This document shows, piece by piece, positions 3,617 to 52,697 of a stretch of DNA of 64,000 bases. The stretch lies in assembly GCA_963842445.1 (NCBI GenBank), contig CAWJHF010000002.1:173858-237857 (forward strand), read 5' to 3'. Made by a program: the position numbers and the translations under genes. The notes beneath the pieces are model-generated. The model had not been told where the DNA came from. It worked only from the letters and a program-made list of their open reading frames with translations, and ran no database searches. Within the stretch, counting starts at the first letter, position 1, and each line of letters starts with the position of its first letter. Origin of the DNA: an uncultured Verrucomicrobiae bacterium (GTDB lineage: Bacteria; Verrucomicrobiota; Verrucomicrobiia; Limisphaerales; UBA11358).

Positions 3617-3644
3617 GCAGCCCACTCGGTAGCCGGAATGTTTG

Positions 3645-9849: not shown

Positions 9850-10254
9850 ATGCCGAACCACAAATCGGGCACCAGCTACTCGTTTTCTCAGCTTGTCAAG
9901 GCGTACAATGCAGACCCGCAGAGCGACACCGATGCACATTACCTCCTTTACCGGGACGACGAGATTCTCGCGCTGTGCCTACGCCACAAATACAACCACG
10001 ACCCCGGCGAAGTCTGGGTCGGGGATGCTCCGGTGGTAGCGGAATGGGGCAAGAAGCTCGCAGCCCTCAAGGACAAGAAAACGCTTCCGCTCTATTACTC
10101 ACAGCGCGGGCGCACCCTTTACGAGTACAGGGATCACCAGTTGATCGCCGGCGATACGGACGACCCGCAGGAACTCGCCAAGCGCAAAAGCCCTGTGCCG
10201 CTGTCCCGAATCGTATTCCTCAAACCGGTGGCCCATGCCGCCTTTGCCCGTTAG
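9850..10254 (+). CDS. hypothetical protein (134 aa), upstream partner of the HEPN-like gene
   Basis: ATG at 9850 within track ORF 9754..10254. The stop lies 2 nt before the next ATG at 10257. Confidence 0.5.
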   Translation: MPNHKSGTSYSFSQLVKAYNADPQSDTDAHYLLYRDDEILALCLRHKYNHDPGEVWVGDAPVVAEWGKKLAALKDKKTLPLYYSQRGRTLYEYRDHQLIAGDTDDPQELAKRKSPVPLSRIVFLKPVAHAAFAR

Positions 10255-10256
10255 CC

Positions 10257-10913: not shown

Positions 10914-11110
10914 ATTGCACGCCTCGCTCGCTGTGGTTCGCAACATCGTATGCACCCTGCTGCTGCCAGAAAAATGCAACACGGACCTGCAACCGTTATT
11001 GGCTGAAATTAGGGAGATTTGACTGCCATGGCCATATTGCAGAAATTTTTGGCGTTGTTTTGCGGTCGGTAGTTGTTGGAATCTTATGCCAGTGAAATTC
11101 CGAACTGAAG

Positions 11111-16237: not shown

Positions 16238-19200
16238 ATGAATTCTGGCCAACTCAAATTAGTTGATGACCGTCCGCTTTCCGAGCGTCTTCGCGCTTAC
16301 GGCTGTACGGATTTCGTTCGTCTTGACGATGGCCTCACGACTCCCGAACAACTCGACTATCTCGACTTGTTACCACGCCGGAGCACTTCGCCGGTCACAG
16401 CGGTTGTTGAGCACCAAGGAACAGCACTCCTCTACCTCGTGGATGCGTGTGGCAATATCACGACCGACGCTACTACGCTTGCGCAGTTGCAGCGGCAACT
16501 TGCGAACCGCAGCGACCCTGCTTGGCTTGGTGTACTGCGGCCCGGCTCACTGGAGATACATCCCATTGGCTTTCACGAAAGCAGCACGACTGTTCCAGTC
16601 GAGACCGTAGTCGAAAAAGATGATCGCGCTCCATTTTTCTTTCAAAGTCTAGCGCATGGCACTTTTGCACAGAACGAACGACTTAAAGGCTCGGATTATG
16701 TTTTCAAAAAAATCTATGGCCTGCTGACGCAGACGACGGACGCCTACGTTCCCGACAACAAACTCGAACCGCTTGAAGTTCTTTCCATGGCTGGCCGGGC
16801 GCTGTTCTTCCGATTCCTCATCGACCGCAGGATCGTTTTGCGAGATGAGCGAAAAGAAATCTGCCCGGCGTCGGACGGTTTGAAGGACGCTTTTGCCAAC
16901 GCTGAAAAAGCCGCCATGACTTCCGCGTGGCTCGACCAAACTTTCAATGGCGATTTCCTTCAACTGATTGACGAATCTATTTCTGCCGATGACCGTACCG
17001 CGCGGCAAGACGCATATTTGCAATTTTACAGACGAATCGAGCGGCGGGCGGGCAAAAAATTCTTTGACCACCTTCATGCCATTCTGAACGGCTGGCACGC
17101 GACGGGTGGCGGCATTCAGCAAGAATTAGACTGGGGTGATCTCGACTTTGCACACATACCAGTTGGCGTGTTGAGTCAGGTCTATGAAAGCTTCAGCCAT
17201 CGTGCCGATGCACGTACGGCGAAAAAAACGAGCGTTCATTACACTCCTAGAACCATCGCTCGGCTGATCGTAGATCAAACTTTCGCCGCCGCCAAAGACC
17301 CTGCTAACGCCCGTGTGCTGGATGCTGCGTGCGGAGCAGGCATCTTCCTTGTTCTTGCCTTCCGCCGTCTCGTGCGGGAGCGATGGCAGCACGACGAACA
17401 GCGCCCCGACACAAAAGCCATTCAGCAAATTCTTTACGGTCAGCTTCGGGGCTTTGACATCAGCGAATCTGCTCTCCGCCTTGCCGCGCTCGCGCTCTAC
17501 ATAACCGCGATTGAGGTAAACGGAACTCAGCGTCCACCAAAGGTGCTCAAGTTTCCGCGAAATCTGCGCAACGAAGTGCTTCACTACTTCGGCGATGTGC
17601 CCCCGGCGAAAGATACTGCTGCAAAGCAGCCTGCGAAGGCCACGTTTACGCTCGGCAGCCTCGGCCCGCGCGTGTCGTCGGAATTCAACAAGTCATTCGA
17701 CATCGTGCTTGGAAATCCGCCGTGGACGCGACTCCGCGAAGACGAACCGCAGAACACCGAACAAAGAGCTGCCGGGCGTGCAGCCAAGAAAGAACCGGCA
17801 AAAGTCGAGACTGACCTGCTGAACGAGGAATTCACGGCCATTGGTCAGCGTGTCCTTCGCGTGCGCGGTCTCGCTGAGTTGGCTGATAGCTACGAAAACC
17901 CCGACAAGAATCCTGACCTGCCTTTCCTCTGGAGGGCAACAGAGTGGGCTAAGGACGGTGGTCTTATTGCATTCGCACTTCCTGCACGCATCTTTGGTCG
18001 TACCACAGGCAAAGGCTACAAAGCATGGCGTGCTGTGCTCCATAGCATATCTCTGACCGGACTCATCAATGGCGCTGATCTGCGAAAGACCGCAGTGTGG
18101 GAGGGTATTGATATGCCGTTCTGCTTGTTGTTTGCTCGTAACGCACTCCCTCAAAACAAACACCGCTTTTATTATGCGACTCCACTCTACGAGCCTGAGC
18201 AAAACCGGGATGGCCGTTTCCGTATAGATTATGAAGCAACGCAGCCGGTGAGCATTGAGCGCGTGGAGAAACAGCCGTGGATATTAAAAACGCTGTCGCT
18301 CGGCACTTGGCGCGATGTTGAGGTGATGGAAAAGTTGACAAAGGCGTTTCAACGAACGCTTGCAGATGAGTGGAGGGTCTGGAATCCGAAGGCGGACAAG
18401 ACGCACCAAGGTTACAATCGTTCGCCTAATTTGAAACAAAAGTCAGCGATGTTTTTCAAAGAATTAAAAGACTTTGAACCGCCGCAAGAAGGCTTCAACA
18501 TTCAATACAGCGAATTAAAATCTTACTTCAAAAAATACAAAACGAACTCTGCTCACGGGCCTCGCACTGAAGCACTCTATGCAGCGCCGCTCGTCATTGT
18601 TCCAAAAGCTCCGGGTGATGTTGTGAACCGTCCCAAGGCATATCTATCGAGAAAACCGCTTACTTTTTCTCAGAGCTACTACGGTTATTCCTGTAATGGC
18701 CATCCCGATGCCAAAACTCTTGCCGCTTTGATTTATCTTATTCCGCAGAGTGATTTGTTTCGCTACTTCACCCTAATGGTTAGTGTGTCCCAGGGTGCGG
18801 ACCACATGATCTTCACCAAGCAAGATTTGGATACTCTCCCATTCCCAGACGTTGCCAAACTTCCAGCTCAAACAAAGAATGCCATCCGCAAGCTTGCTCG
18901 CCGTCTCGAAAGAGACGCAAAAAAACCGTGGGACGAAATTGACTCACTGCTCTTTCGCCTTTATGGCTTACAAGACAATGCGATTCAAGTCGTCCGAGAA
19001 ACCCTTTTTGCCGCCGCAGCCTATCGCCGCCAGGGCCGGGCCGCGCTGGACCGGACAACCCGCAAAGACCGCGCTCCATTCCGAAACACACTGCGTGAAC
19101 TACTAGAACCGTATTTCGACGTGTGTGGCCAGCATGTCGCCGTTGAAGAACCAAAGTCGCAGCCTGACGCTTGGGAGCAGCCGTGGTTCTTTGTCGCCAT

Positions 19201-19432
19201 CTCCCAAGCGGATGAAGAAGTGCCGTTGAATTCTGCGTTGCTCCGCAAGGCAATGGAGGAAGCTAACAAACGAGCCGCCAGTCGGATCATTGTCAAAGTT
19301 CACGGTCAACACGGGCTACTGTTGGGCCTGCTAAATCAACGCCGTTGGTGGACACAGACACGAGCCGAGTTGTGTGGCCAACACATCGTGCGACACCACC
19401 TTGGCGCTTTCGGTCTTGCCGAACAAACATGA
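16238..19432 (+). CDS. Large gamma-class N6-adenine DNA methyltransferase (type IIG/PglX-like architecture, 1064 aa)
   Basis: Motifs VHYTPRTIARLIV, motif I VLDAACGAGIFLV and motif IV DIVLGNPPWTRL. Long N- and C-terminal extensions. Confidence 0.85.
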   Translation: MNSGQLKLVDDRPLSERLRAYGCTDFVRLDDGLTTPEQLDYLDLLPRRSTSPVTAVVEHQGTALLYLVDACGNITTDATTLAQLQRQLANRSDPAWLGVLRPGSLEIHPIGFHESSTTVPVETVVEKDDRAPFFFQSLAHGTFAQNERLKGSDYVFKKIYGLLTQTTDAYVPDNKLEPLEVLSMAGRALFFRFLIDRRIVLRDERKEICPASDGLKDAFANAEKAAMTSAWLDQTFNGDFLQLIDESISADDRTARQDAYLQFYRRIERRAGKKFFDHLHAILNGWHATGGGIQQELDWGDLDFAHIPVGVLSQVYESFSHRADARTAKKTSVHYTPRTIARLIVDQTFAAAKDPANARVLDAACGAGIFLVLAFRRLVRERWQHDEQRPDTKAIQQILYGQLRGFDISESALRLAALALYITAIEVNGTQRPPKVLKFPRNLRNEVLHYFGDVPPAKDTAAKQPAKATFTLGSLGPRVSSEFNKSFDIVLGNPPWTRLREDEPQNTEQRAAGRAAKKEPAKVETDLLNEEFTAIGQRVLRVRGLAELADSYENPDKNPDLPFLWRATEWAKDGGLIAFALPARIFGRTTGKGYKAWRAVLHSISLTGLINGADLRKTAVWEGIDMPFCLLFARNALPQNKHRFYYATPLYEPEQNRDGRFRIDYEATQPVSIERVEKQPWILKTLSLGTWRDVEVMEKLTKAFQRTLADEWRVWNPKADKTHQGYNRSPNLKQKSAMFFKELKDFEPPQEGFNIQYSELKSYFKKYKTNSAHGPRTEALYAAPLVIVPKAPGDVVNRPKAYLSRKPLTFSQSYYGYSCNGHPDAKTLAALIYLIPQSDLFRYFTLMVSVSQGADHMIFTKQDLDTLPFPDVAKLPAQTKNAIRKLARRLERDAKKPWDEIDSLLFRLYGLQDNAIQVVRETLFAAAAYRRQGRAALDRTTRKDRAPFRNTLRELLEPYFDVCGQHVAVEEPKSQPDAWEQPWFFVAISQADEEVPLNSALLRKAMEEANKRAASRIIVKVHGQHGLLLGLLNQRRWWTQTRAELCGQHIVRHHLGAFGLAEQT

Positions 19433-20214: not shown

Positions 20215-21015
20215 CTACTCCCCGGTTCTCGTGTCGCCTTCGCCGGTATGGTCTTTACTGAAGGCACTGAAGGATGAGTAATTTTTGATGCGCTTGCCAC
20301 GGTTGATGCTCCCAAGTTGTGTCCGATCAATCCTGCGCTGTAGAAGATCGACCAGCTCATCGAAACGGGCGATGGGTATCCGTTCCCAGTCCGCCTTGAA
20401 TTCCTTTTTGATGATCCTGTAAATGGCGGCAAATGAAAAGTCGGTGCGTCCCGCCTGCTTGCTCGCAAAATCATTGTAACGGTCAATCAGATGCTTAACG
20501 TAATTGCGGCGGACCAAATCTGAACCGAGACTGCCCTCGACGGGGAGAAACTTCGGACTTCCCTTGGATTGGCGGATCGTCACGTTGTCAGCTTGAATTG
20601 ACCCCGGACTGTTCAGCATCACATGCCCTCCAGCCGTAATATAAACGGCCCGGTAGTCTCTCAGGATGGCTTCCACTTTTCGGGCGTCCGATTGCGAGAG
20701 GTCGATAGAGCCGTTTTTCTCATGAGCCTCCTTCATCTGACGTAGAAACTCGACCGTGTAGGTCTTCGGGTCGGAATCAATAAGCTTGCTGTGCCTGGCG
20801 CACATCAAAATCAGGTTCGCATGGCCATGTCGTTCTTCAGTGGGCTGCTTGGAGTCGTAACGGGGGCCTCCCTTACTCCGTGCCTTGATGTGGCAGACGA
20901 TGCCTGTGACAACGCCTGAATCTTCAACGATTGGAAGCTCACATTGAGGGAAGGCGCATCGGTTGTTCGATAGTACAAAGAGCCTTTTGAGCGTCGAAAG
21001 CAACGGTTCGTTCAT
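20215..21015 (-). CDS. HNH endonuclease-domain protein
   Basis: CAFPQCELP...VCHIKARSKGGPRYDSKQPTEERHGHANLILMCARHSKLID carries Cys pairs plus an H-N-H pattern. The ATG at 21015 avoids overlap with the hsdR stop at 21032. Confidence 0.7.
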   Translation of the reverse strand: MNEPLLSTLKRLFVLSNNRCAFPQCELPIVEDSGVVTGIVCHIKARSKGGPRYDSKQPTEERHGHANLILMCARHSKLIDSDPKTYTVEFLRQMKEAHEKNGSIDLSQSDARKVEAILRDYRAVYITAGGHVMLNSPGSIQADNVTIRQSKGSPKFLPVEGSLGSDLVRRNYVKHLIDRYNDFASKQAGRTDFSFAAIYRIIKKEFKADWERIPIARFDELVDLLQRRIDRTQLGSINRGKRIKNYSSFSAFSKDHTGEGDTRTGE

Positions 21016-21031
21016 ATCAACCTGAGTCGGC

Positions 21032-23989
21032 TCAATAATACTGCCGGATGTATTCGTAGGCCCGGTCAAAAAGCTCCTGCTCCCGGTGAAGCTGGTATTT
21101 CAGCAGCGTGCTCCGCAGCGCCCGCTTGATCTCGCGCTCGCCACCCGTGGTCTGCTGCCAACCGTCGAACCGCACGGCTCGGACAATGGCGTCAATGTCG
21201 CTGACAACGCGCTCGACCATCACCGGCGTCTTGGTGTTTTTGGCCGCTTTGAACAACTCCGTCAACGCGGCTTTGCCGCGATCCTGTTCCTGCGTTGGGA
21301 CGACTTCCTTTTCAGCGGCCACCACATCCTTGGCCAACTCCAGCAGCAGCTTCAGGAACGCCAGGCTGGTCAGGAGGCCCTTCTCGTGGCGCTCCTTCAA
21401 TTCCTCCAACCGCTGGCCCAGAGCGATGAATTTCGGATTCTTCGAGTGTTTTCGGATGCGGGCAATGATGTTGATCTCGATCAGCTTGATCTTGGTCGGG
21501 TCCTGAGACTCGATAATTTCCTTCAGCAGGTTTTCGTCCATCACCAGGGTTTCGAGGTTGTCTTGGACCGCTTCAACGTGGACGTTCTGATGGATCAATT
21601 CCACCGTTTTCGCGCCGAGCGTATGCCACAGCAGCTTGCCGTTACCACTGGGCGGTTTCACCGATTCGTACACCTGGCCGAGCCAGCGGTAATCGTCCTC
21701 ATAGGGTTTCAGGCACGAATCCGGCGACAATGCCTCCCACACCCTGGCAAAAACTGAAAAATCCGCAGCGAAAGCATCGCGCTTTTCATTATTCGGCAGG
21801 CATTGCTGCGCGGCGATCAGACCCTCGTAGCCGCTGACCTTCCGGTTCACGCCGGGGAAATAATCCACGCACTTTTTCCAGATCACCGATAATTGTGCTT
21901 TCACTTCCTCCAGGTTGGTGATGACCAGTCGGATGGATTTCTCGTCAAACATCAGCGCCCGGCCCACGTCGTCGAAAATGCCCAGGTAATCCACCACCAG
22001 GCCGTGCGTCTTGCCGGTGTACGGGCGATTCGTCCGGCAGATGGCCTGCAACAGCGTGTGATCCTTCATCGGCTTGTCCAGGTACATCGCCTGAAGAATT
22101 GGCGCGTCAAAGCCGGTCAGCAATTTCGATGTGACGATCAAGAATTTCAACGGGTGATTCGGGTCGCGGAAATTATCCAGGAGCCGCTCCTCGTCGTCCT
22201 TGCTGCGCTCGTAAAGCTTTTTATATTCCGTTTCGCCGCTGGCCACGGTCATCACGACGGCACTTGCTTCAGGCGGCAAAATCTTATCGAACTCCTGCTT
22301 AAACAAATGGCAGGACTCGCGGTCGAACGTCACCACCTGGGCTTTGAAACCGTTCGGCTCCACTTTCGTTTCGTAGTGCTCCACGATGTCCTTCACCAGC
22401 GTCTGAATGCGCTCCGGCGACTTAACCAGCACGCCCATTTTGGCGGCCATCTTTGACAGGTCCGCCGCGTCTTCTTCCGACATGTCGCTGGTAATGTTCT
22501 TAAACGCTTCATCAATCGCGTCCTTGTCTATGCGCAGTTGGACCAGCCTGGCCTCAAAATGCAGCGGCAGCGTGGCCTTGTCGCGGATGGATTCCTCGAA
22601 CGAATACTTGCTCATGTACCCATTGCCATCCTCGGCGGCACCAAACGCCCAAAACGTGTTCCGGTCGGCGCGGTTGATTGGCGTGCCGGTCAGGCCGAAC
22701 AGGAAAGCATTGGGCAGCGCCTCGCGCATTTTCCGGCCAAGGTCACCTTCCTGGGTCCGGTGCGCCTCGTCCACCATGACGATGATGTTCTTGCGGTCGT
22801 TCAGAACGCCGGGTGCTTCACCAAACTTGTGAATCGTGGTGATGATGATCTTCCGCACGTCCTGGGCCAGCAACTGACGCAGGTCATTGCGCGTGACGGC
22901 GGGAGCAACATTTGGGATGTCTGACGCGCTGAACGTGGCGGTGATCTGCGTATCCAGGTCGATTCGGTCCACCACAATGATGACGGTGGGATTTTGCAGA
23001 GCTGGATGCAGCCGCAACTTCTGCGCGGCAAAAACCATGAGCAGCGACTTTCCCGATCCCTGGAAATGCCAGATCAACCCTTTTTTCACGCGCCCCTCCA
23101 GCACGCGCTCGACGATCTGGTTCACCGCTTCGTATTGCTGGTAGCGACTGATAATTTTGATTTTCCGCCGTTTTTTGTCCGTGGCGAACAACGTGAAGCT
23201 GCCCAGGATGTCCAGCACCACTTCAGGCCGTAACATGCTCTCCACCGCCGTCCGCATCTCGCTCAAGCCGCCATGCTCGCCCTGCTCGGAATCCCGCCAG
23301 GGTGCCCATAGGTCCAGCGGCATACGGATCGAACCAAACCGGTACGTTTTGCCCTCTGTTGCGAAGGAAAAGACATTCGGAACAAACAACGCCGGGATGT
23401 TGACCTCGTAATCGTTCAGGATGTCGTCCGCCGCGTCCACCCAACTGATGGCCGGGCGCACCGGCGTCTTCGTCTCGCCCACGATCACGGGGATGCCGTT
23501 GACGAACAGCACCAGATCAGGCCGGAGTTTCTTGGCTGAGTAAACAAACTGCTGTGTACAGACGAACCGGTTGTTGCCCAAGGTCTCGAAATCAATCAGT
23601 CGGACGGGCGTGTGCTCGTTGTTTGGGCCGAACGGCATGGACCGCTCACCGCGCAGCCAGGCGGTGAATTCCTCATTGGCCCGGACCAGGCCGTCGCTCT
23701 GGACCGACAGCAGGATGGCCCGGAGTTTGTAAAAGACCTCATCGGCCCGGTCGGGCTTTTCGGCGATCTCTGGATTCAGCCGGATCAGCGCCTCACGTAG
23801 ATGCGGCTCAACCAGCACATCGTTGAAGTCACGGGGTAGTTGGTCGGCGGGGATGAAATGCCATCCCAGGCCCGCCGCCAGCGCCGGTAGCGATGCGCCT
23901 TTGAACAATGGCTCCCGCACCGCAGCGTCCTGTTTACCGCAGAGCAGATCACGGACATAATCCTCAACGCTGTTGGCTTCGTTAAACAT
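21032..23989 (-). CDS. hsdR: Type I restriction enzyme R subunit
   Basis: Motifs IWHFQGSGKSL, IIVMVDEAHRTQ, LLTGFDAP and QAICRTNR. 985 aa, with an 8-nt overlap with hsdS. Confidence 0.92.
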   Translation of the reverse strand: MFNEANSVEDYVRDLLCGKQDAAVREPLFKGASLPALAAGLGWHFIPADQLPRDFNDVLVEPHLREALIRLNPEIAEKPDRADEVFYKLRAILLSVQSDGLVRANEEFTAWLRGERSMPFGPNNEHTPVRLIDFETLGNNRFVCTQQFVYSAKKLRPDLVLFVNGIPVIVGETKTPVRPAISWVDAADDILNDYEVNIPALFVPNVFSFATEGKTYRFGSIRMPLDLWAPWRDSEQGEHGGLSEMRTAVESMLRPEVVLDILGSFTLFATDKKRRKIKIISRYQQYEAVNQIVERVLEGRVKKGLIWHFQGSGKSLLMVFAAQKLRLHPALQNPTVIIVVDRIDLDTQITATFSASDIPNVAPAVTRNDLRQLLAQDVRKIIITTIHKFGEAPGVLNDRKNIIVMVDEAHRTQEGDLGRKMREALPNAFLFGLTGTPINRADRNTFWAFGAAEDGNGYMSKYSFEESIRDKATLPLHFEARLVQLRIDKDAIDEAFKNITSDMSEEDAADLSKMAAKMGVLVKSPERIQTLVKDIVEHYETKVEPNGFKAQVVTFDRESCHLFKQEFDKILPPEASAVVMTVASGETEYKKLYERSKDDEERLLDNFRDPNHPLKFLIVTSKLLTGFDAPILQAMYLDKPMKDHTLLQAICRTNRPYTGKTHGLVVDYLGIFDDVGRALMFDEKSIRLVITNLEEVKAQLSVIWKKCVDYFPGVNRKVSGYEGLIAAQQCLPNNEKRDAFAADFSVFARVWEALSPDSCLKPYEDDYRWLGQVYESVKPPSGNGKLLWHTLGAKTVELIHQNVHVEAVQDNLETLVMDENLLKEIIESQDPTKIKLIEINIIARIRKHSKNPKFIALGQRLEELKERHEKGLLTSLAFLKLLLELAKDVVAAEKEVVPTQEQDRGKAALTELFKAAKNTKTPVMVERVVSDIDAIVRAVRFDGWQQTTGGEREIKRALRSTLLKYQLHREQELFDRAYEYIRQYY

Positions 23990-25238: not shown

Positions 25239-26999
25239 TTACCGGAGTTTTTTATGCACCCATCGCCATTGCGTGTAGGCGCGTTCCATACACTTTTCAA
25301 AAGCGGTGTTCGTGCGAAGAAATCCGAAATTCCCTTCGGCCACACGGTCTTTATACTCTTTGTTGTCGGTTAGCCAACTCATTAGCATCCTACAGCGAGC
25401 CGTGGCCAGGTAACTAAGTTTGTTCACAAAATCCGCTTCGACGCTCAGGCTCGTGCCATATCGGTCTGCCAATTCTGCCAGTGCGGAGTCATTAAGCACG
25501 CCCTGGCAAAGCAGTGCCCATAAAAGCCCACGGGCGCGGCTGATGTAGCTGTAGCGATTGGGGCCTTTTTCTACGATGTCATTCATTAGTCGGCGGAGGC
25601 GGTAATGAATTTTGTAGCAGAGTACAATATGGCGAGTGTCAGCCTGGATTCGCGCTTCGTTGAATGCTAGGCCGTAGATGCGGTCGTCCTCAAATACCTG
25701 CGCCATACTCTGCGTTTTATCCACTTCGCCTTCCGTTAAGAGAAATGTCTGCGCCAGCGGTCGAATCTGAATGGGTTTGATTTCTGTGATGCCCTCCTCA
25801 TCCAAATTATCCAACGCCTCGAAAGCGTTCTCCTGGCGCTCATAGAATATGCCCAAGTCATCTTTGAACTTTTCCTGTAATTGAAGCTGGATCAGGTCAT
25901 TGGCCCGAAGATTCCATGGCTCTACGGGATTTTGACGGTTATTATTGATTGTAACGCTGGTGAAGAAGTCAGACGTGGCCTTAGTGATGATTTTGCACAG
26001 GACGCGCACTTCGTCCAAAGCCTGCTTCCGTTCCTCGACAAGTGGGTTCTCGGCGTTCGCCTTGATGAACTCGTCGAAAGTAGTCACCGTCTGAGCACCG
26101 TTAAGCAGTCTTGGCGATGTGATGTGATAGTTACTGTCGATTTTCTCAAGGTGTTCGGCTGCGAGCGTGATACCATTGTGGTTGAAGGCAAAGACCAACG
26201 GAGATTCGCCATCGACCGCAATCTGCTTGAGCGCCCGCGAGAGCGCCCGGTTGACCGACCGGTTCATTCCAAGTCCAAAACGAATGTTGCGCTCGAAAAA
26301 CCGAGGTCCCATGTCTCGGTGCATGAAATTCAAGTCGGTCAATCGAATGAAGCCGACATACATCTGTTCACCTGCCGGACCTGGGCGCTCAATTAACTCA
26401 GTCAAGGGAAGTTGATAAACACGGGCGCGGGTGTGGTCTTCCACCGTGCCGATTTTGCCCGTGACGGAACGAAACTCGACCAAAAAACTGACCTGCCTGC
26501 CCTCAAAGAACTTGTCGATGAGAAACTTTTTGTTTTCAAGGTCTTCCCGGAGATGGTCGAGCACCGGGCTTTTGTCTGCTTCAGCGGGGTCACCGGTAAA
26601 GATGAACCGCAAACACACCTGCTTGATGGCCTCACGGTTCTCCAACATGCAACTGCGAAGTTGAAGCAGAATCTGATTTTTCGCCGGGTCAGCCTTTTGT
26701 GGCTTCGAGAAAATCACTTCCATGCCCTCATCGATCAATCGTTGCATCGAGCCTTTGAATTGAGCGTGAGATTTGGAGTATTTGAACTGGAACAGGTAAA
26801 GATTCCTTTTTTCGGGATCGAAGTGAAAGCCGTCCAGTCCGTAGTCGTTTCCGCCAAATGCGACTTGATTGAGGACCTGCTCTCGCGGCACTTTGTAATC
26901 TCGCTCCAACACCAAAAGCCCGAAGTAGTCATTGCGTACGCCTCCGCATGTATCTTTCAAATCGGAATATGCTTGGTCAATCATTCGGTCTGTTATCAT
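25239..26999 (-). CDS. AIPR-family (abortive infection phage resistance) protein
   Basis: N-terminal nuclease-like DYGLDGFHFD...LYLFQFKYS, and central FNHNGITLAA / LLNGAQTVTTF typical of AIPR. Embedded between hsdM and hsdS. Confidence 0.7.
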   Translation of the reverse strand: MITDRMIDQAYSDLKDTCGGVRNDYFGLLVLERDYKVPREQVLNQVAFGGNDYGLDGFHFDPEKRNLYLFQFKYSKSHAQFKGSMQRLIDEGMEVIFSKPQKADPAKNQILLQLRSCMLENREAIKQVCLRFIFTGDPAEADKSPVLDHLREDLENKKFLIDKFFEGRQVSFLVEFRSVTGKIGTVEDHTRARVYQLPLTELIERPGPAGEQMYVGFIRLTDLNFMHRDMGPRFFERNIRFGLGMNRSVNRALSRALKQIAVDGESPLVFAFNHNGITLAAEHLEKIDSNYHITSPRLLNGAQTVTTFDEFIKANAENPLVEERKQALDEVRVLCKIITKATSDFFTSVTINNNRQNPVEPWNLRANDLIQLQLQEKFKDDLGIFYERQENAFEALDNLDEEGITEIKPIQIRPLAQTFLLTEGEVDKTQSMAQVFEDDRIYGLAFNEARIQADTRHIVLCYKIHYRLRRLMNDIVEKGPNRYSYISRARGLLWALLCQGVLNDSALAELADRYGTSLSVEADFVNKLSYLATARCRMLMSWLTDNKEYKDRVAEGNFGFLRTNTAFEKCMERAYTQWRWVHKKLR

Positions 27000-27027: not shown

Positions 27028-28530
27028 TTACCCACGCATGTCAGTATGATTTAAAATCACAAGGAGGTTGTCCATTGACGACCGCAGAGCCGCTGAACTT
27101 GTTTGCCATACCTCGATGACCTTTGCCAGCGGTTTTTCGGTCGCGGTGGTTGTTGCGCCGTTGGCGTTGAGCCGGATGTAAAGCGGGATGCTCAAGTTGG
27201 CCTTGTTGGCGCGGATTTCATCCAGTGGCACGGCGCGGGCAAAACCATCCACGTCGGCGAACGATTGATAGGTCGTCAGGATTTTTTGGATGTGATTTTC
27301 TTCCAGAAAACTCTGCGCTCGTTCACGGGTGACTTCGTTTACGGCATTGATGAATAAAATCTTGTTTTTCCGCGCCTTGGGTTTTGCCGTCCGGCACACC
27401 ACCACGCACGCCTCCATCGGCGAGTTGTAAAACAAGTTGGGACCCAGGCCCAGGACACATTCAATCTGGTCTCTGTCCACGAGCTTGGCCCGCATCTCTT
27501 GTTCCTCGTCCCGGAACAGCACGCCGTGTGGGAACAGGATCGCGCACCGGCCCGTCTTCGGCTTTAGGCTGGCCAGGATGTGGCCGAGGAAGGCGTAGTC
27601 CGCTCGACCCTGCGGCGGCGTGCCCAGGGAATTGCGCCCGAAACGGTCGGATGACCAGGCGGTGCGGTCCCACTGCTTGATGGAGTACGGAGGATTGGCC
27701 AGCGCCAGGTCAAATTGCCGGAGCCGGTCGCCATCCGTGAAAGCCGGAGCCGCCAGCGTATCGCCGCGCACGATTTTGAAATCCTCGATGCCATGCAGGA
27801 ACATGTTCATCCGGGCGATGGAACTGGTCATCAGGTTGCGCTCCTGGCCGTATGCTTTGAGATTGCGCCATTCTTTGCCGCGTGTCCTGACTTCGGCGAT
27901 GGCTGACAGCAACATGCCGCCAGTGCCGCAGGTCGGATCGTAGATGGAGTCCCCCGGCTGCGGATCAAGCATCAACGTCATCAGGTGGACCAAAGTGCGG
28001 TTCGTATAAAACTCGGCGGCGGTGTGGCCGCTGTCGTCGGCGAATTTTTTAATCAGAAATTCATACGCATTGCCCAGTTCGTCTTCCGGCACGTTGGCAA
28101 TAGAGAGGTTCAGCGTGGAATAGTGCTCGATCAGGTCTTTGAGCATTTTATCCGGCAGCCGCTCGGTGTTGGTCCACTGCGCGTCACCGAAAATGCCGAA
28201 TAGCGTTTCCGGGTTGGCCTTCTCGATGTCCCGCATCGCGTCCTGGATGCCCTTGCCGATGTTTTTGGGCCGGTTCCGCACATCCCGCCAGTGAGCGCCT
28301 GGCGGCACCTGAAAGCGGTGGTTTTCCGCAAACGTGGCGAAGTCAGCGTCGCCGCTGGATTGTTTCAACGCCTTTTCATATTCCTCATCGTAAACGTCAC
28401 AGAGCCGCTTGAAGAACAGGAGCGGGAAGATGAACTGTTTGTAGTCGCCAGCGTCAATGAAACCACGGAGAAGCGTGGCCGCGCCCCACAGGTAGGATTC
28501 GAGTTGCTGTTGGGTGATGTGGGTGTTCAT
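27028..28530 (-). CDS. hsdM: Type I R-M N6-adenine DNA methyltransferase subunit (copy 1)
   Basis: N-terminal HsdM_N-like LWGAATLLRG...FIFPLLFFKRL, motif I DPTCGTGGML and motif IV LANPPYS. Note FYTNR where FYTPR is usual. Confidence 0.92.
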   Translation of the reverse strand: MNTHITQQQLESYLWGAATLLRGFIDAGDYKQFIFPLLFFKRLCDVYDEEYEKALKQSSGDADFATFAENHRFQVPPGAHWRDVRNRPKNIGKGIQDAMRDIEKANPETLFGIFGDAQWTNTERLPDKMLKDLIEHYSTLNLSIANVPEDELGNAYEFLIKKFADDSGHTAAEFYTNRTLVHLMTLMLDPQPGDSIYDPTCGTGGMLLSAIAEVRTRGKEWRNLKAYGQERNLMTSSIARMNMFLHGIEDFKIVRGDTLAAPAFTDGDRLRQFDLALANPPYSIKQWDRTAWSSDRFGRNSLGTPPQGRADYAFLGHILASLKPKTGRCAILFPHGVLFRDEEQEMRAKLVDRDQIECVLGLGPNLFYNSPMEACVVVCRTAKPKARKNKILFINAVNEVTRERAQSFLEENHIQKILTTYQSFADVDGFARAVPLDEIRANKANLSIPLYIRLNANGATTTATEKPLAKVIEVWQTSSAALRSSMDNLLVILNHTDMRG

Positions 28531-28531
28531 A

Positions 28532-30232
28532 CTACGCTTCCTTGAGCGACGGCGAAATGGCCTTTTCGAGTTTTATAGCTGACGCGACCACCCACTCCGA
28601 CAACGTCTTTAGATCGGCTGCCGACTGCTGAATAGACCCTGCACGATAGATGGCGATCCGGCAGGCCCTTTTGTCGTCCATGCGCTCCCAGCGCAATACT
28701 TCGTCAGATTTTAGCAGGCCAAGTTTGCCGTCAATGTCGGTCTGGTTTCTAAACAACTTGTCGTAAACAGCCTTATTCCACTTCCTCTTGCCGTAATCAA
28801 CATAAAGTTCGACCCGCAACTCCTTGGACTTTGTGAAGCTGGCAAACAAGCCAATCTTCTTTTTGGAAGCGTTCGGGAGGTCTGCCAGCCGGAAATAACT
28901 CCGCCCGTCCGGTTCGCCTACCCTCAAAGGAAATTCTTTGTGTTTCGCAAGTCTCTGCCGAACGCCGTTGAAAAAGTTGATGTATGACTTTTCTCGGCCA
29001 CCAATCCGCACGAAGACGATCTCCTTCCCACCTTGAAAGGCGTTCGGCACAAAATAGAGCACCCTCCAACCGATCTCCAACCATTGCGCCGAACGTAGAT
29101 TTTCAGGTTCATTGGCCCACCAGGACCTGTGTTCGTGTGCGGCCTTTGGCAGCTTGCACTTCGTTATATTCTTCTCAATGTCCTGGAGTCGGATGCGGAC
29201 TTCCTTTTGGCCTGGGGGTAGGGCCTGCAAATAGCTGATCAGTGGAACAAGTATGCTGTCGGTCGGTCGAGCTTCCTCGTCGGTTGGCTCAGTTACTTGC
29301 GATGCAGAACCGCGGGCAGCGGAAGTGACAATCTGACCTAGCTCTTTCGGAGGTTCTGGATGGGCATCGGCAGCACAGACAATTTCAAGCCAGTCCTTGC
29401 AGAACCGTAACTGCTCCCGTTCAGTGGGTGATAATTCACCTCGAAAATGCGCCAGCTTGTTCCGCGTTTCACGCACATCGCTGAGCAGTCGTCGAATCAC
29501 CTCCTTATCATCCGATTGAGCGATTTTCGGGCACATGGGATGCAGCAGCAGCATTTCAGCGAATTCCGCCATCGTAAGCTCATCGAAAGCTTTTTTGCGG
29601 TCAGGCACACCAAGGCGCTTGAATGCCACGTCAACGGTCGGGGCGTCTAATGCACAGGGTTCCGTACGCGATTTGCCCAGATAGGACATTAAGGCCGACT
29701 CAAACTTAGGCCGCATTTGTCGGGCAGGATTGGAGACAGCTTCGATGGTTTCCCCCATGCCACCTTTTTCACCCGGCTTCACAAAATAGGCAGCCTCTAC
29801 GTATTCCTTTAGCATGGTTTCGATGTCTTCGACCAACATCATGTCTCCTGCCCGCCGTCTGAAAAAGTCTGTCGTGTCATAGGTTGTTACGATACCAACT
29901 ACCTTGCTTTCACGGTCGGTAATTACAACGGCGTAAGTATTTTTGGTTTCGTCCAGCAGTTCCTCGATGTCCTGGTCGAGGAACATCTTGGTTGCGCCCT
30001 CCCTGGCGTCACGGACGCCCAACTGTGCGGGCGCAACCTTGAAGCTGTTCGATGCACGCACGATTGAACTTGCGGTAACCATGCCCGACACCACCCCCTC
30101 AGTGGTAACGACTGGCAACTGACTAAAGTCGTGTTTGGCCATCAAGGATAGAGCGTGCGCAACTGTGTCGCTCGACGAAACGCAGACTGGTTGCGCTCGG
30201 CCTTCGATCAAATCTCGCACAGTGAATAGCAT
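28532..30232 (-). CDS. CBS-pair / HEPN (Swt1-like) / DUF4268-like fusion protein
   Basis: Two CBS-like units in the first ~130 aa. Central SDVRETRNKLAHFRG carries an RNxxxH HEPN motif. The C-terminal ~170 aa (LRVELYVDYG...LRWERMDDKRACRIAIYR) resembles DUF4268. ATG at 30232 lies 4 nt after the hsdM-2 stop; an alternative GTG is at 30253. Confidence 0.6.
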   Translation of the reverse strand: MLFTVRDLIEGRAQPVCVSSSDTVAHALSLMAKHDFSQLPVVTTEGVVSGMVTASSIVRASNSFKVAPAQLGVRDAREGATKMFLDQDIEELLDETKNTYAVVITDRESKVVGIVTTYDTTDFFRRRAGDMMLVEDIETMLKEYVEAAYFVKPGEKGGMGETIEAVSNPARQMRPKFESALMSYLGKSRTEPCALDAPTVDVAFKRLGVPDRKKAFDELTMAEFAEMLLLHPMCPKIAQSDDKEVIRRLLSDVRETRNKLAHFRGELSPTEREQLRFCKDWLEIVCAADAHPEPPKELGQIVTSAARGSASQVTEPTDEEARPTDSILVPLISYLQALPPGQKEVRIRLQDIEKNITKCKLPKAAHEHRSWWANEPENLRSAQWLEIGWRVLYFVPNAFQGGKEIVFVRIGGREKSYINFFNGVRQRLAKHKEFPLRVGEPDGRSYFRLADLPNASKKKIGLFASFTKSKELRVELYVDYGKRKWNKAVYDKLFRNQTDIDGKLGLLKSDEVLRWERMDDKRACRIAIYRAGSIQQSAADLKTLSEWVVASAIKLEKAISPSLKEA

Positions 30233-30236
30233 AAAT

Positions 30237-31745
30237 TCAGACCAAATTGGCACTTTTCAGCAGAGACTTGAGCCGGTCCTCGGCAGCGTAGGCGTCGGCC
30301 AGCGCCGTCTTCAAGTTGGCGAGTGCCTGCTTGACCGTGATAGTTTCCTGGTCACTGACCTGCTCAACGTACCGGGGAATGTTCAGGTTATAGTCGTTGG
30401 CGGCGATCTCCTTCAACGTAACGACCTTGGCGATGCCTTTGACGTTTTTGTAATCCCGATACCAGCCGAAGATTTTGTCCACATGTTCCGGCAGGAGCGT
30501 GTTCTGATTCCGACCCTTTTTGAAAATGCCCGATGCGTTGATGATGAGCACACGATTCCGCCGATCCGGCTTTTTTCTGGCCCGGAAGACCAGGATACAA
30601 GCTGCCAGGCCAGTGCCGTAGAACAGGTTTGGCCCCAGTCCGATCACTGCTTCAAGTTTATCCATCTCCAGTATTGTGCGCCGTATCTTTCCCTCGACCC
30701 CCATGCGGAACAGCACGCCATGCGGCAGAACGACCGCCATGCGTCCGGTGCCGGGGGCCATTGACTTCAACATGTGCTGGACGAAGGCGTAATCAGCGCT
30801 GCTCCGTGGCGGGACACCGGCAAAATTGCGGCCATATCGGTCATTGACCCAGATGTCCTCACCCCACCGCTCCACGGAGAACGGCTCGTTGGCGATCACA
30901 CAAACGAACGTGGCCAGGCTGTCACCAGTGAAAAAGGCCGGATCACGGAGCGTGTCGCCCCGGACAATCTTGAAATCTTCGACACCATGCAAAAACAGAT
31001 TGATCCTGGCTATGGCCGACGTGGTGAGGTTCTTTTCCTGACCGAACAGCTTGCCCCATAACTTCCTGACATTGCCGCCAGCCTCTTTTACGTGCTGGAT
31101 TGCGCCCAGGAGCATACCGGCTGTGCCGCAAGTCGGGTCGTAAATCGTGTCGCCCTCCTTCGGGTCGAGGATTTTGACCATCAGCCGGACAACACTGCGG
31201 GGTGTATAAAACTCTCCGGCCTTCCGGTTGGTCTGGTCGGCGAATTTCTTGATCAGGTATTCATACGCCTGGCCCAGAATGTCATCATCGGTGTCACGGT
31301 TGGCCAGACCGATGCGCGAGAAATGCTCAATCAGATCGCGCAGCAGCGCATCGGACAGCCGTTCCTTGTTGCTCCAGGGTGCATCGCCGAAAATTCCGTA
31401 AAGGGTGTTCGGATTGGCCTTTTCGATTTCCCGCATGGCCCTCTGGATGGCCTGGCCGACGTTTGTGGTCTTGGCCCGAACATCATTCCAATGGCAGCCC
31501 TCCGGTATTTGAAACCGATGGTTTTCGGCGAACTGAGCGTAGGCGATGTCGCCGCCCGATTCCTGGAGCGCCTGGTCGTATTCTTCGTCGTAAACGTCAC
31601 TGATCCGCTTGAAAAACAACAGTGGAAAAATGAACGTTTTGAAGTCCGAGGCATCAACCGGCCCGCGCAGGATGTTGGCGGCTTCCCACAGATGGGATTC
31701 CAAGGTTGTCAGATCAACAGTGCTGGTGGACGCCGGAGTTGTCAT
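30237..31745 (-). CDS. hsdM: Type I R-M methyltransferase-subunit paralogue (copy 2) with non-canonical motifs I and IV
   Basis: Collinear with copy 1 and more than 50% identical by eye. FYTPR is present, but motif I reads DPTCGTAGML and motif IV reads IANEPFS, where the N/D-PP-Y/F pattern is expected. Both checked on the DNA. Confidence 0.85.
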   Translation of the reverse strand: MTTPASTSTVDLTTLESHLWEAANILRGPVDASDFKTFIFPLLFFKRISDVYDEEYDQALQESGGDIAYAQFAENHRFQIPEGCHWNDVRAKTTNVGQAIQRAMREIEKANPNTLYGIFGDAPWSNKERLSDALLRDLIEHFSRIGLANRDTDDDILGQAYEYLIKKFADQTNRKAGEFYTPRSVVRLMVKILDPKEGDTIYDPTCGTAGMLLGAIQHVKEAGGNVRKLWGKLFGQEKNLTTSAIARINLFLHGVEDFKIVRGDTLRDPAFFTGDSLATFVCVIANEPFSVERWGEDIWVNDRYGRNFAGVPPRSSADYAFVQHMLKSMAPGTGRMAVVLPHGVLFRMGVEGKIRRTILEMDKLEAVIGLGPNLFYGTGLAACILVFRARKKPDRRNRVLIINASGIFKKGRNQNTLLPEHVDKIFGWYRDYKNVKGIAKVVTLKEIAANDYNLNIPRYVEQVSDQETITVKQALANLKTALADAYAAEDRLKSLLKSANLV

Positions 31746-33792: not shown

Positions 33793-36384
33793 TCAGCGCG
33801 TCTTCAAAACGCGGTCGGCTGGCTTTGAAATAAGTATCCCGGTCAGCGAAGCGGGGTCCAGTTGCGCCGATTGCAACCTGTCGGCTGCGTTTGCTCGCCA
33901 CGCCAAGTCACCTGAGCCAGGAAAAGTCCTGCGAAGGTCACGAATAACTTGGAGTGCGGATTTCGCCCATGAACGGAATTCGGCCAAGTTCCACACACAC
34001 ACGTCTTTCAGATGCGGCATCGCCTCCTTATCAGCGACGGCTACCGGCGTGACAAGGACCGGGATTATGTTGGCAGCCTTTGCCAGCGGTACTCTCTCCC
34101 GTATCCAATTTGGGTGGGAAGCCGCTTGCCTCGCCTTCGTTACGTCGAGGCTGCCAGCACGGTCCCCGTTCGAGTGGTCCTCAAAGACCAGGCAAAGCTC
34201 GTCATGCAAAATCCACCATGGATCGGGCGATCCTTTTGATTCTTCCTTCCCGGCCTTGAAGCCGAGCATCGTTCCCAGTCGCTCATGGGCGGTTTCAAAC
34301 TTGGAGCTTTCGTTCTGCATGATGTTTTCTGCAATGAACTTTTCCTCCTGGTCGAATTTCCGGTCATGGGCGGTACCCAGATTTTCAAGATTGCTCTCAA
34401 TGTTCTCAACCTGGAGCGCGAGGGCCTCGTCACGGGTCGGCGTGGATTTGGCCTTTTCTTGTAGTCGGCAAAGGCCGACCAACCACGAGACCCCTGGCGC
34501 TGCTTTTTGAGCGGCTGCGTATTGAGCGCGTGCCTGTTGGTCGAGTCCTTCGACACCGCTCTTGTACGCCAGCCAGGCGGCGCTGCCAGCCAAGTAACTC
34601 CACAACGCCCGATAACCACGGAGTGCCGGGTCATTAAGCCGCCCAAGAACTGCCCTGGCCGCATCGAATGCCCCAGGGTAATCCCCCTGCCACAGGCTCG
34701 TTTGATACTCAATTTCGGAGTCCACAGCCTGATGGAGATCGGCTGTGCCCGGCAGGGCTTTTCGTGTGAGGCCCTCACGGAGTTGAACGATCTGACTGTC
34801 CGCCTGCTGCCAATCTTGGGATTGCTGAAGGAAAGCCGCCAAGTTGTCCACGAAATCAGACACCTTCTGGTCTTTGGATTGATCGATGCCGAACTGGAGT
34901 TCGGCTTGCAGTTCAGGATGGAGAAAGCACCGACGATCAGTGGCAAGCAGGTAATTGTGAAGTTCCTCCCCTTCAACAATCACAGCGGCAAAATCTGTCG
35001 CCGAACGGGTGCAACGACCGAACGCTTGGACCATTCTCGTCAGGATGCGGTCGTTCAACATTGCAACGGCCCCCAATCGAGTGATGAAGAATCTTTCCTG
35101 GAGATTCGTGGCGCGTGGCAGTCCCGCCACGATGAGAACACGGCATTCGTCGTCAGGAAAATCGATCCCATCGTAACGGTTGGCCAAGACAGCGACCGCC
35201 TTCGCTCTGGACGTAAATGGCGTTTTGGCAAGCTCAATGTCCCTGGCGTTGAAGGTGTCAAAACCCACCTTCTGCTTGACCCAATCCCGATACAGGGCGG
35301 CGCTTTCATCGTCTGGCACGATTACAAGGCTTCGTCCCGCCTTTTTGAGCACATGGACGGTCAACTCGTCGGCTTCCGTTTTGTTAAGTGATCTTTCGGG
35401 AAACAGGAAAAAGCGCCTGCCAATACCCTGCTTTTCCCACCCCTTGACCTGGAGGCGAAGAATACTCGACCGCCCGGTGATTCTCTCCAGATCGCCGCCT
35501 TCGCCGAGAGTAGCCGACATGTACACTCTTTGCCTTGCATCGGCGAAGGGCGCATGGCTGAAGGTTGGTGGGATAATGGGCCGCAGCAGAACTTCTCGCG
35601 CACTCAGGAACAGATGGCAAGCTGGCACGTGATCCCGGATCATCTTCCAAGGGAACGACAAATCCGAATCCGTTTCCTCAAGCCGGGTGTCCATGACTTT
35701 GATCAGTTCCGGGATGCGGTCGAAGAATTTAGGCGTCGGGATTTTTTCGACCCAGTTTTGGTCCCAAGTGCCGCCAGAACCTCCGCGCACGCGCTGCTGG
35801 TCCGCGCAGGACAGCAAATCCATAAAAACCCCAACGACGGCCTCATAGATCGCCGTATCCTCGGACCGAACTATCCGCAGCGACCACATCTTCGGAATGT
35901 AATTTTCCGCCGAATGGGAATCATCGAGAATGATTGTGTTCGGGTTCTGAAAATAAGGAGCAGTATTGAAAAGACTGCTGTAGGATGTAACCGCAATGGC
36001 CTCTCCGCCGATAAACTCACCCTTAGCGCCAGGATCGTAATCGGCTTTCTTTCCCACAAACCCGTTCACTTTCAAGCCGTACTGGGAAACCGCCTGGGTG
36101 ACGACTTGGTGGACGAGCTGATTAGTCGGGCACAGATAAACGACACGCTCCTGGAATTTCCTTCTCCGCCATTCGCCGATAAGCAAGCCGACGAGGGTCT
36201 TGCCACTGCCGGTGGCAAGCTGGAGTGCCACGTCGGGTACATCAACTGCTTTTGAAGTGTACTCGCGGAGAAGGTCAGCTTGCTGCGACAGCAAGCCTGG
36301 TATTTTTTTGGTGCGAATGTCTCTGAACAGGGCTTCGGGATTCTCCAGAGACAAGGCCGCAGTTGCAACGGGTTTGAAAGCCAT
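33793..36384 (-). CDS. SF2 helicase, DinG/XPD-like, with a ~350-aa C-terminal region of unknown function
   Basis: Motif I QLATGSGKTLVG, motif II IILDDSHS, VYMSATLG, ANRYDGIDFPDDECRVLIVAGLP and motif VI VQAFGRCTRS. ATG at 36384 (MAFKPV...). The track ORF extension to 36600 runs through the inverted repeat and looks non-coding. Confidence 0.8.
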   Translation of the reverse strand: MAFKPVATAALSLENPEALFRDIRTKKIPGLLSQQADLLREYTSKAVDVPDVALQLATGSGKTLVGLLIGEWRRRKFQERVVYLCPTNQLVHQVVTQAVSQYGLKVNGFVGKKADYDPGAKGEFIGGEAIAVTSYSSLFNTAPYFQNPNTIILDDSHSAENYIPKMWSLRIVRSEDTAIYEAVVGVFMDLLSCADQQRVRGGSGGTWDQNWVEKIPTPKFFDRIPELIKVMDTRLEETDSDLSFPWKMIRDHVPACHLFLSAREVLLRPIIPPTFSHAPFADARQRVYMSATLGEGGDLERITGRSSILRLQVKGWEKQGIGRRFFLFPERSLNKTEADELTVHVLKKAGRSLVIVPDDESAALYRDWVKQKVGFDTFNARDIELAKTPFTSRAKAVAVLANRYDGIDFPDDECRVLIVAGLPRATNLQERFFITRLGAVAMLNDRILTRMVQAFGRCTRSATDFAAVIVEGEELHNYLLATDRRCFLHPELQAELQFGIDQSKDQKVSDFVDNLAAFLQQSQDWQQADSQIVQLREGLTRKALPGTADLHQAVDSEIEYQTSLWQGDYPGAFDAARAVLGRLNDPALRGYRALWSYLAGSAAWLAYKSGVEGLDQQARAQYAAAQKAAPGVSWLVGLCRLQEKAKSTPTRDEALALQVENIESNLENLGTAHDRKFDQEEKFIAENIMQNESSKFETAHERLGTMLGFKAGKEESKGSPDPWWILHDELCLVFEDHSNGDRAGSLDVTKARQAASHPNWIRERVPLAKAANIIPVLVTPVAVADKEAMPHLKDVCVWNLAEFRSWAKSALQVIRDLRRTFPGSGDLAWRANAADRLQSAQLDPASLTGILISKPADRVLKTR

Positions 36385-36485
36385 GCGGTCTTTTAGAACA
36401 TCGCCCCGTGGGTGTAAAGCCTTCGCCGCGCCGCTACCGGACGCCACCACGCCCCGCTCGGTGATCCCGGACAGGCAAGGGAGAG

Positions 36486-36554
36486 CGAACCGCCTGCGGC
36501 GTGGATTTGAACCTGAACTGGGACCGGCTGATGGCGGATGTGGGTTCCCACTGC
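36486..36554. repeat. Right copy of the 68-nt imperfect inverted repeat (partner at 339..406)
   Basis: See 339..406. Lies in the 260-nt divergent intergenic region between the helicase (start 36384) and the DUF5069 gene (start 36644). Confidence 0.9.
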
Positions 36555-36643
36555 CAACCGGCGGGCTGATTCCAAATTGTAACAGGGTTGACCTTGCCAA
36601 TCAGCGAAGCGATGGGCATGGTGTCATCAAAGAAAGAAACTTT

Positions 36644-52687: not shown

Positions 52688-52697
52688 ACGGCAACCC

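Follow-up and report, generated by a model that had tools for sequence, protein, structure and literature searches.

Organisation of the operon

The window, by which we mean the whole analysed stretch of 64,000 nucleotides, carries on its minus strand an operon whose core is, by family assignment, almost certainly a PacII-type m4C/m6A Type I restriction-modification system. Along the operon the predicted genes follow each other in the order M1, passenger, M2, passenger, S, R. The genes and the motif positions discussed below are:

30237..31745, minus strand: hsdM1 (predicted M1-type, adenine, m6A-family), 502 aa; match to PacII M1, Pfam HsdM_N and N6_Mtase
31119..31121, minus strand: codon GCC, A209 of motif I (GTAG) of M1
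30903..30905, minus strand: codon GTT, V281 of M1, in place of the Asp of FDCVIAN
30879..30890, minus strand: codons AAC GAG CCG TTC, motif IV of M1 (N286 E287 P288 F289), where the family normally has NPPF
28532..30253, minus strand: passenger between M1 and M2, a CBS, DUF7662 and DUF4268 protein, 573 aa; PADLOC candidate PDC-S11
27028..28530, minus strand: hsdM2 (predicted M2-type, cytosine, m4C-family), 500 aa; match to PacII M2, signature residues
25239..26999, minus strand: passenger between M2 and S, an AIPR / AbiU-like protein, 586 aa
23982..25190, minus strand: hsdS, 402 aa; match to PacII S with 148 bits, strongest over TRD1
21032..23989, minus strand: hsdR, 985 aa, intact; Pfam HSDR_N, SWI2_SNF2, ResIII, T1R_D3-like
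20215..21069, minus strand: HNH-type endonuclease-like gene (PDC-M68A-like), overlapping the end of hsdR

Type I systems with two methyltransferases, one for m4C and one for m6A, form a described subgroup that includes PacII of Pseudomonas alcaligenes and has an M1M2S architecture (Morgan 2016, PMC5100572; Zhu 2022, PMC9613975; PDB 7VRU/7VS4). Their genes are ordered M1, M2, S, R, with extra ORFs in between (Morgan 2016, PMC5100572). The same layout was found here: M1 lies before M2, M2 before S, and R downstream, with the optional additional ORFs present. Both hsdM products are full-length with an HsdM_N and an N6_Mtase domain each (Pfam), and they share 54% identity, within the 45-55% typical of such pairs; the operon has one S and one R. 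In a survey of 80 genome loci, M1 was followed by M2 in about 70, with the AAEFYTNR motif of M2 invariant there; about 75 M2 genes were collected, and the M1 of the window groups with the M1 genes of the 80 loci. A classical single-M Type I enzyme (M2S1) was ruled out, since the two hsdM genes are not identical and belong one to the M1 and one to the M2 group. Two hsdM paralogues in one operon have been known since 2016, and the window adds one uncharacterised member.

The initial annotation had suggested a heteromeric M1-M2-S methylase. This idea was right, but the architecture had already been published, and both copies match chains of 7VRU (E 1e-174 and 1e-185). The count of only one hsdS and one hsdR is likewise true of the operon. 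Another contig of the same genome carries a further Type I M+S pair, apart from this operon.

Two passengers of defence type sit among the core genes, an arrangement often met in the PacII-type subgroup. The HNH-type endonuclease-like gene is probably a further passenger.

Assignment of the two HsdM paralogues and the S subunit

The published signatures of the subgroup are AGEF and NPPF with a GTxxx loop for M1, and AAEF and NPPY with an NSPME loop for M2. Copy 1 (27028..28530) displays AAEFYTNR, DPTCGTGG, ANPPY and the pocket loop NSPME, and thereby all M2 residues. It matches PacII M2 (7VRU chain B) with 620 bits, and its combination of AAEFYTNR, NPPY and NSPME was seen again in about 75 M2 genes. 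By these residues copy 1 is M2, the predicted cytosine methylase of a PacII-type system.

Copy 2 (30237..31745) contains AGEFYTPR, DPTCGTAG, FVCVIANEPF and the pocket loop GTGLA, and matches PacII M1 (7VRU chain A) with 582 bits. The AGEF of the M1 signature is present, and motif IV reads NEPF where NPPF is diagnostic. Since its nearest NPPF relatives are 86-88% identical and trees place it among M1 genes, the protein is assigned to the M1 group by homology, with a variant of the diagnostic motif.

All motifs named in the initial annotation were found again on the nucleotide sequence; their interpretation as complementary degeneration of two copies was not borne out. The FYTNR of copy 1, taken there for a deviation from FYTPR, is normal for this protein because it is an invariant mark of the M2 family of cytosine methylases, PacII M2 included. 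The GTAG of copy 2 had been regarded as a degenerate motif I, and it is normal as well, because the same form occurs in the active archetype EcoKI HsdM (DPAAGTAGF) and in NPPF-bearing relatives. What remains as the sole true departure is the Glu in place of the first Pro of motif IV, which is real and unusual. V281 (FVCVIANEPF), absent from the earlier description, is confined to the window among 219 M1 sequences.

In hsdS, TRD1 is a conserved cytosine-type domain (FGKRRAYQRKLAVA...GSLSP) close to TRD1 of PacII, and TRD2 is an unrelated, divergent domain of the classical adenine type that matches TRD2 of EcoKI S. A search for similarity between the two halves of hsdS found none. Across the operons with an NEPF M1, three TRD1 variants occur, all of cytosine type, together with five unrelated TRD2s. 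An all-m4C system with a duplicated cytosine TRD, in which M1 would have no need of catalysis, was excluded, because the S halves are unlike, TRD2 is EcoKI-like and five NEPF operons have five unrelated TRD2s.

Taken as a PacII-type system, M1 and M2 would assemble with one S to an M1M2S methylase. M2 (27028-28530) would act through the conserved TRD1 to place m4C on one strand, and M1 (30237-31745) through the variable TRD2 to place m6A on the opposite strand. HsdR (21032-23989) would join the methylase for restriction of unmethylated DNA.

Distribution and conservation of NEPF

Glu at site 287 was found in 22 M1 sequences (10 of them distinct), whereas Pro stands there in each of the other 197 M1 sequences compared. 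The ten distinct NEPF sequences are 87-92% identical and come from peat, soil and freshwater metagenomes; the closest genome is one named Limisphaerales MAG. The Glu codon is GAG or GAA, and the nearest NPPF genes have CCA or CCG; the change at E287 is one of two nucleotides. A metagenome scan for VIANEPF(S/T), a pattern that would miss NEPF in other sequence contexts, gave at least 120 matches. Among those listed, five are M1, all of the same clade, and the rest are unrelated proteins; independent NEPF lineages were discarded as an explanation on this basis. In the literature, we found no paper that pairs NEPF with a methyltransferase.

In a tree of the whole M1 gene, two NPPF genes fell within the NEPF group. 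Region-wise trees explain this mixed group by recombination in the N- and C-terminal thirds. In the tree of the catalytic domain, the two nearest NPPF genes pair with 99% support and lie outside all NEPF genes. NEPF arose once, in a small lineage, and was then retained by purifying selection.

Within the NEPF lineage, the dN/dS of M1 is 0.05-0.11 at dS 0.5-1.4, equal to that of M2 (0.07-0.12). Nine full-length sequences show no change in motifs X, I, II and III, in the N, P and F of motif IV or in the pocket loop, apart from a VGEF in one; the tenth is a fusion (L205) that breaks off before the pocket loop. We looked for residues in M1 or M2 that co-vary with E287 or compensate for it, and none is exclusive to the NEPF group, a conservative L291V apart. 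The differences of M2 between NEPF and other operons are ordinary lineage differences. Complete NEPF operons with a 985-aa R are present in the window and in the loci L001, L004, L007 and L094, and the S subunits of such operons are of at least five kinds. The hsdR of the window is 90-91% identical to the R of the other NEPF operons, at a dN/dS of 0.03-0.07. The CBS-DUF4268 insert recurs in the closest NEPF relative (L193) with 70% identity.

These data bear on the possibility that copy 2 is the leftover, decaying methylase of a second Type I system, or that NEPF is a sequencing or assembly error. Such an origin is extremely improbable. Its one starting point is the unusual motif itself, to which the window-specific D281V, which could be an error, may be added. 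However, the arrangement M1-M2-S-R is what the family normally shows, as seen in about 70 loci, NEPF occurs in ten independent sequences from different samples, and Pro to Glu takes two base changes. Because of these ten sequences with two codon spellings, the complete operons, the low dN/dS of M1 and the intact motifs, NEPF is neither an error nor a product of decay; selection and operon context argue against a decay of copy 2.

Probable activity of the NEPF-type M1

On the sequence evidence, the reading that we consider probable is a PacII-type M1M2S system in which the NEPF-type M1 is still an active adenine methylase. In m6A methylases, it is the main-chain carbonyl, and not the side chain, by which the first Pro of motif IV takes part. 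Activity is plausible because of this main-chain contribution and because a dead M1 beside an intact HsdR would be strongly counter-selected. KsgA and Erm, as a functional analogy and not as members of the family, indicate that N-x-P-aromatic can be catalytic. While the data show the family assignment, the clade distribution, the selection and the completeness of the operons, the catalytic competence of this M1 is something we infer. Several points are to be held against it. Glu adds a charge and backbone freedom beside the site of methyl transfer, and in the precedents, KsgA and Erm, the residue is small and hydrophobic and the substrate is RNA. The D281V that the window's M1 alone carries may have an effect as well. 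To our knowledge, the Pro-Pro of motif IV is nearly invariant among DNA amino-methylases. Type I enzymes such as EcoKI also need AdoMet as cofactor for the discrimination of DNA; the conserved cofactor-binding motifs are for this reason no proof of catalysis.

A functional shift of the adenine subunit, towards either a scaffold or an altered adenine chemistry, is possible, though we would not expect it. As a scaffold, M1 would be catalytically dead and serve a structural role in assembly, DNA clamping or HsdR docking, which we regard as rather unlikely for the NEPF lineage. It is similarly doubtful that the cytosine strand alone is marked (m4C) and that sites stay permanently hemi-methylated, as would follow. 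The notion is fed by the otherwise invariant Pro-Pro among the M1 sequences compared and by mutant studies: in E. coli lacking R, three of four systems with M1-APPA, M2 and S still reached almost the normal level of m4C, and all-m4C hybrids need the M1 protein but not its catalysis (Morgan 2016, PMC5100572). At least where DNA is methylated in E. coli with no R present, M1 can therefore act purely as a scaffold. Purifying selection on the whole protein is equally expected for an essential scaffold, and directly upstream of one NEPF M1 (L096) lies a Lar-type gene for restriction alleviation.

However, if one strand alone is marked, each replication yields one daughter duplex that has no methylation at any site. 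Mutants in the pocket of PacII M1 are also crippled in de novo m4C formation on unmethylated DNA, which they perform inefficiently; with a dead M1, one of the two daughter duplexes would therefore lack protection each time the DNA is replicated, and HsdR is intact and under strong constraint in all complete NEPF operons. In the base pocket, the F of AGEF, the N and F of motif IV and the GTGLA loop show no change among the nine NEPF sequences of full length, where dS reaches 1.4, and these residues have no obvious role in a scaffold. Moreover, TRD2 is of the classical adenine type in every NEPF case and never a second cytosine TRD.

The other form of shift, in which Glu287 alters the action of M1 in the same system, by re-binding of methylated adenine or by a changed preference for base or cofactor, seems quite improbable. 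In KsgA and Erm, another residue in place of the first proline alters the backbone, and a mono-methylated substrate can thereby be methylated again, and E287 has been kept through a synonymous GAG/GAA change across ten sequences, as for a selected trait. Against this stand the small hydrophobic residues and the RNA substrates of these precedents, and the conservative change from L to V four residues later as the sole co-variation with E287 among pocket residues.

Each outcome would have consequences of its own. If M1 is active, as we favour, a DNA m6A methylase can do without the first proline, and motif-based calls of "dead" methylases need care. An inactive M1 would make the NEPF operons the first natural examples of Type I systems that rely on single-strand m4C marking for host protection, and the question arises how they avoid self-restriction after replication; m4C-only systems have been sought in nature, with no clear candidates (Morgan 2016, PMC5100572). 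If Glu287 changes the chemistry, an already methylated N6 might be tolerated, as in KsgA and Erm. Either functional shift would be a natural experiment on the first proline of (D/N)PP(Y/F/W) in a DNA methylase. The interest of the locus is this departure in motif IV, which selection has preserved in ten or more related systems whose restriction subunits are intact.

Comparison with known systems

The classical Type IA enzyme EcoKI (M2S1) shares with the window's M1 the HsdM fold, the DPxxGTAG form of motif I and the S and R partners, and has a motif IV of NPPF type. It differs in using two copies of one M subunit for m6A only, and its HsdM is a distant relative (about 91 bits). KsgA/Dim1 and Erm resemble the NEPF-type M1 as active N6-adenine methylases with a motif IV that lacks the first proline, (A/S/N)(L/I/V)P(Y/F). 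They belong to another family, however, with RNA substrates and a small hydrophobic residue instead of Glu.

The closest known counterpart of the predicted system is the PacII type. All three PacII chains were matched strongly. In common are the two HsdM paralogues, with 54% identity against 45-55% published, the order M1, M2, S, R with interspersed ORFs, an M2 with AAEF(YTNR), NPPY and NSPME, an M1 with AGEF and a GTxxx loop, and the pairing of a conserved cytosine-type TRD1 with a variable adenine-type TRD2. The window differs in its passengers, a CBS-DUF4268 protein and an AIPR/AbiU protein, in the FVC instead of FDC before motif IV of M1, and in NEPF instead of NPPF, shared with nine other distinct sequences. 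The new feature is this NEPF for a near-invariant NPPF in the M1 of a small group of soil bacteria; the rest of the system is known.

Organization of the operon and its genomic context

A tightly packed run of genes, some of them overlapping, extends over the minus strand of the window from 31745 to 20215. Passengers are extra genes between core operon genes.

30237-31745, minus strand, HsdM, 502 aa (copy 2)
28532-30253, minus strand, passenger between M1 and M2, 573 aa, CBS pair, DUF7662 and C-terminal DUF4268 (PADLOC candidate PDC-S11)
27028-28530, minus strand, HsdM, 500 aa (copy 1)
25239-26999, minus strand, AIPR/AbiU-like passenger between M2 and hsdS, 586 aa
23982-25190, minus strand, HsdS, 402 aa
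21032-23989, minus strand, HsdR, 985 aa
20215-21069, minus strand, HNH-type endonuclease-like protein (PDC-M68A, or N-terminus of a SAVED-HNH-type effector), overlapping the 3' end of hsdR

The HNH-type gene is probably co-transcribed with hsdR. The operon lies inside a defence island (approximately 9.7-36.6 kb of the window), which also contains the following features:

9777-11932, plus strand, HEPN AbiU2-domain protein (378 aa) and DUF4238 protein (273 aa), left edge of the island
16238-19432, plus strand, N6_Mtase/Eco57I/MmeI-type protein, 1064 aa (Type IIG-like or PglX-like), adjoining the Type I operon
33793-36600, minus strand, DinG/XPD-like helicase, 935 aa, full-length match to PADLOC candidate PDC-S28 (E 1e-116)

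Another Type I M+S pair, unrelated to this one, is encoded elsewhere in the genome (3.77 Mb, 25 contigs), on contig C16 (approximately 51000-53200, minus strand; HsdM 582 aa, HsdS 460 aa). More N6_Mtase proteins were observed on contigs C22 (1028 aa) and C10 (557 aa). The M1 of the window has no orthologue in any of 24 genomes of the same genus, a result that fits with horizontal acquisition.

Assignment of the two HsdM proteins

The two HsdM proteins share 54% identity across 459 residues. In a search of solved structures, copy 2 was assigned to chain A (582 bits) and copy 1 to chain B (620 bits) of 7VRU/7VS4, the PacII M1M2S methylase (Zhu et al. 2022, PMC9613975), and HsdS of the window matches chain C. 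Systems described by Morgan et al. (2016, PMC5100572) form heterotrimers of two different M subunits and one S, in which M1 (NPPF, AGEF) produces m6A on one strand and M2 (NPPY, AAEF) m4C on the opposite strand (Morgan et al. 2016; Zhu et al. 2022). The pocket loop N-S-P-M-E is specific for M2, and G-T-x-x-x is that of M1. Copy 1, with the loop NSPME, is therefore M2; copy 2, with the loop GTGLA, is M1.

The initial annotation had interpreted three deviating motifs as degeneration. All motifs quoted there are present, namely AAEFYTNR, DPTCGTGG and ANPPY in copy 1 and AGEFYTPR, DPTCGTAG and ANEPF in copy 2, the last encoded by AAC GAG CCG TTC at 30879-30890 of the nucleotide sequence. However, two of the three deviations are not degenerate but normal. 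PacII M2 itself reads AAEFYTNR, as do all M2 proteins, each also with NPPY, at the approximately 70 of 80 genome loci with a downstream M2 (loci fetched using the M1 of the window as query); NSPME is present in nearly all of them. This distribution marks FYTNR as a signature of the M2 family and not as decay. Likewise, GTAG in motif I is normal variation: HsdM of EcoKI (NC_000913), the archetypal active Type I methylase, reads DPAAGTAGF, several NPPF-bearing relatives of M1 have DPACGTAG, and GSAG occurs in Chlorobium M2 genes. Only the departure in motif IV held up and is genuinely unusual, with proline at this site in all 197 M1 sequences outside one small group (219 assembled).

The NEPF lineage

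NEPF is carried by 10 distinct sequences (below 98.5% mutual identity), 87-92% identical to the window: the window itself, four clusters in a large protein collection, a Limisphaerales MAG (PLZQ01000501) and further metagenome contigs. The closest relative (92%) also has the CBS-DUF4268 insert, 70% identical to that of the window. Of seven NEPF genes compared, five encode the Glu by GAG and two by GAA. Since CCA or CCG stands at this site in the nearest NPPF genes, the two states are two base changes apart. Pairwise dN/dS inside the group is 0.05-0.11 for M1, 0.07-0.12 for M2 and 0.03-0.07 for R, at dS of 0.5-1.4. AGEFYTPR (VGEF in one member), motif I, GQEKN, RGDTL, N, P and F of motif IV and GPNLFYGTGLA are constant in the nine full-length members; the tenth, a fusion, ends before the pocket loop. 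Operons on long-enough contigs are complete (M1-M2-S-R, R of 985 aa) and have at least five different S subunits, with three cytosine-type TRD1 variants and five unrelated TRD2s, a variety which is the pattern expected of actively used systems. Because of these codons, selection values, motifs, operons and S subunits, NEPF is a heritable trait that selection has kept in a small lineage. An error or a pseudogene is ruled out by the 10 sequences, the low dN/dS and the complete operons.

In the whole-gene M1 tree two NPPF genes are nested within the NEPF group. Region-wise trees show that this nesting stems from recombination in the two terminal thirds (N and C) of the gene: in the catalytic-domain tree both NPPF genes form a pair (99% support) that lies apart from every NEPF gene, although the NEPF node itself reaches only 58%. 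Mosaic M1 genes were seen at four loci (L001, L098, L007, L097): L001 (NEPF) and L098 (NPPF) group together in both terminal thirds (N and C) with 97-100% support but not in the catalytic domain, a sign of recombination between related systems. The fusion mentioned (L205, metagenome contig, 3170-5263, plus strand) is a single frame that stays open for at least 698 aa, in which NEPF-M1 residues 1-342 are followed by a linker of about 45 aa and then by an M2 whose N-terminus is complete. Either M1(deltaC) and M2 are naturally fused here, or the contig is an assembly chimera.

Probable methylation activity of NEPF-M1

From sequence comparison, we consider it fairly likely that NEPF-M1 is active as a methylase. 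In m6A methylases, both the D/N side chain and the first proline, by way of its main-chain carbonyl, hold the target amino group; a substitution at this proline keeps the carbonyl, which would count for activity. KsgA/Dim1 and Erm, which are active N6-adenine methylases, read (A/S/N)(L/I/V)P(Y/F). However, Glu is unlike the small hydrophobic residue of these precedents, Pro-Pro is otherwise invariant, and the M1 of the window has an additional unique substitution, D281V. NEPF-M1 might instead serve only as a scaffold, which we regard as doubtful. With M1-APPA mutants, m4C was still formed in three of the four systems; M1 is thus able to act in this way (PMC5100572), and the conserved AdoMet-binding motifs may mirror the cofactor role of AdoMet rather than catalysis. 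On the other side, every NEPF system has a classical adenine-type TRD2, so that the 'all-m4C' route engineered by Morgan et al. (PMC5100572), in which M1 catalysis is dispensable, is not applicable. Marking of the cytosine strand alone would leave one daughter duplex per site wholly unmethylated after replication, and PacII M1 pocket mutants are inefficient in de novo m4C formation on unmethylated DNA. Despite this replication problem of one-strand marking, HsdR is intact and highly constrained in the NEPF group. Besides an active M1 and a scaffold, altered chemistry of NEPF-M1 seems highly improbable.

On one short metagenome contig (L096), a Lar-type restriction-alleviation gene (PF14354; 52-549, plus strand) is located immediately upstream of the NEPF M1, which is possibly of interest if NEPF systems under-methylate.

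Comparison with described systems

Morgan et al. (PMC5100572) reported the gene order M1, M2, S, R with M1 upstream and extra ORFs mostly between both M genes, sometimes between M2 and S. How freely the latter slot is used is illustrated by the nearest complete NPPF operon (L099, 12026-15868, plus strand), with a GmrSD_N protein (607 aa) and a HATPase_c_3 protein (667 aa) at this place. NEPF is a minor clade-level variant that merits one methylome experiment. In its main content the two-hsdM operon is an already described system, and its layout corresponds exactly to the order of Morgan et al., extra ORFs included.
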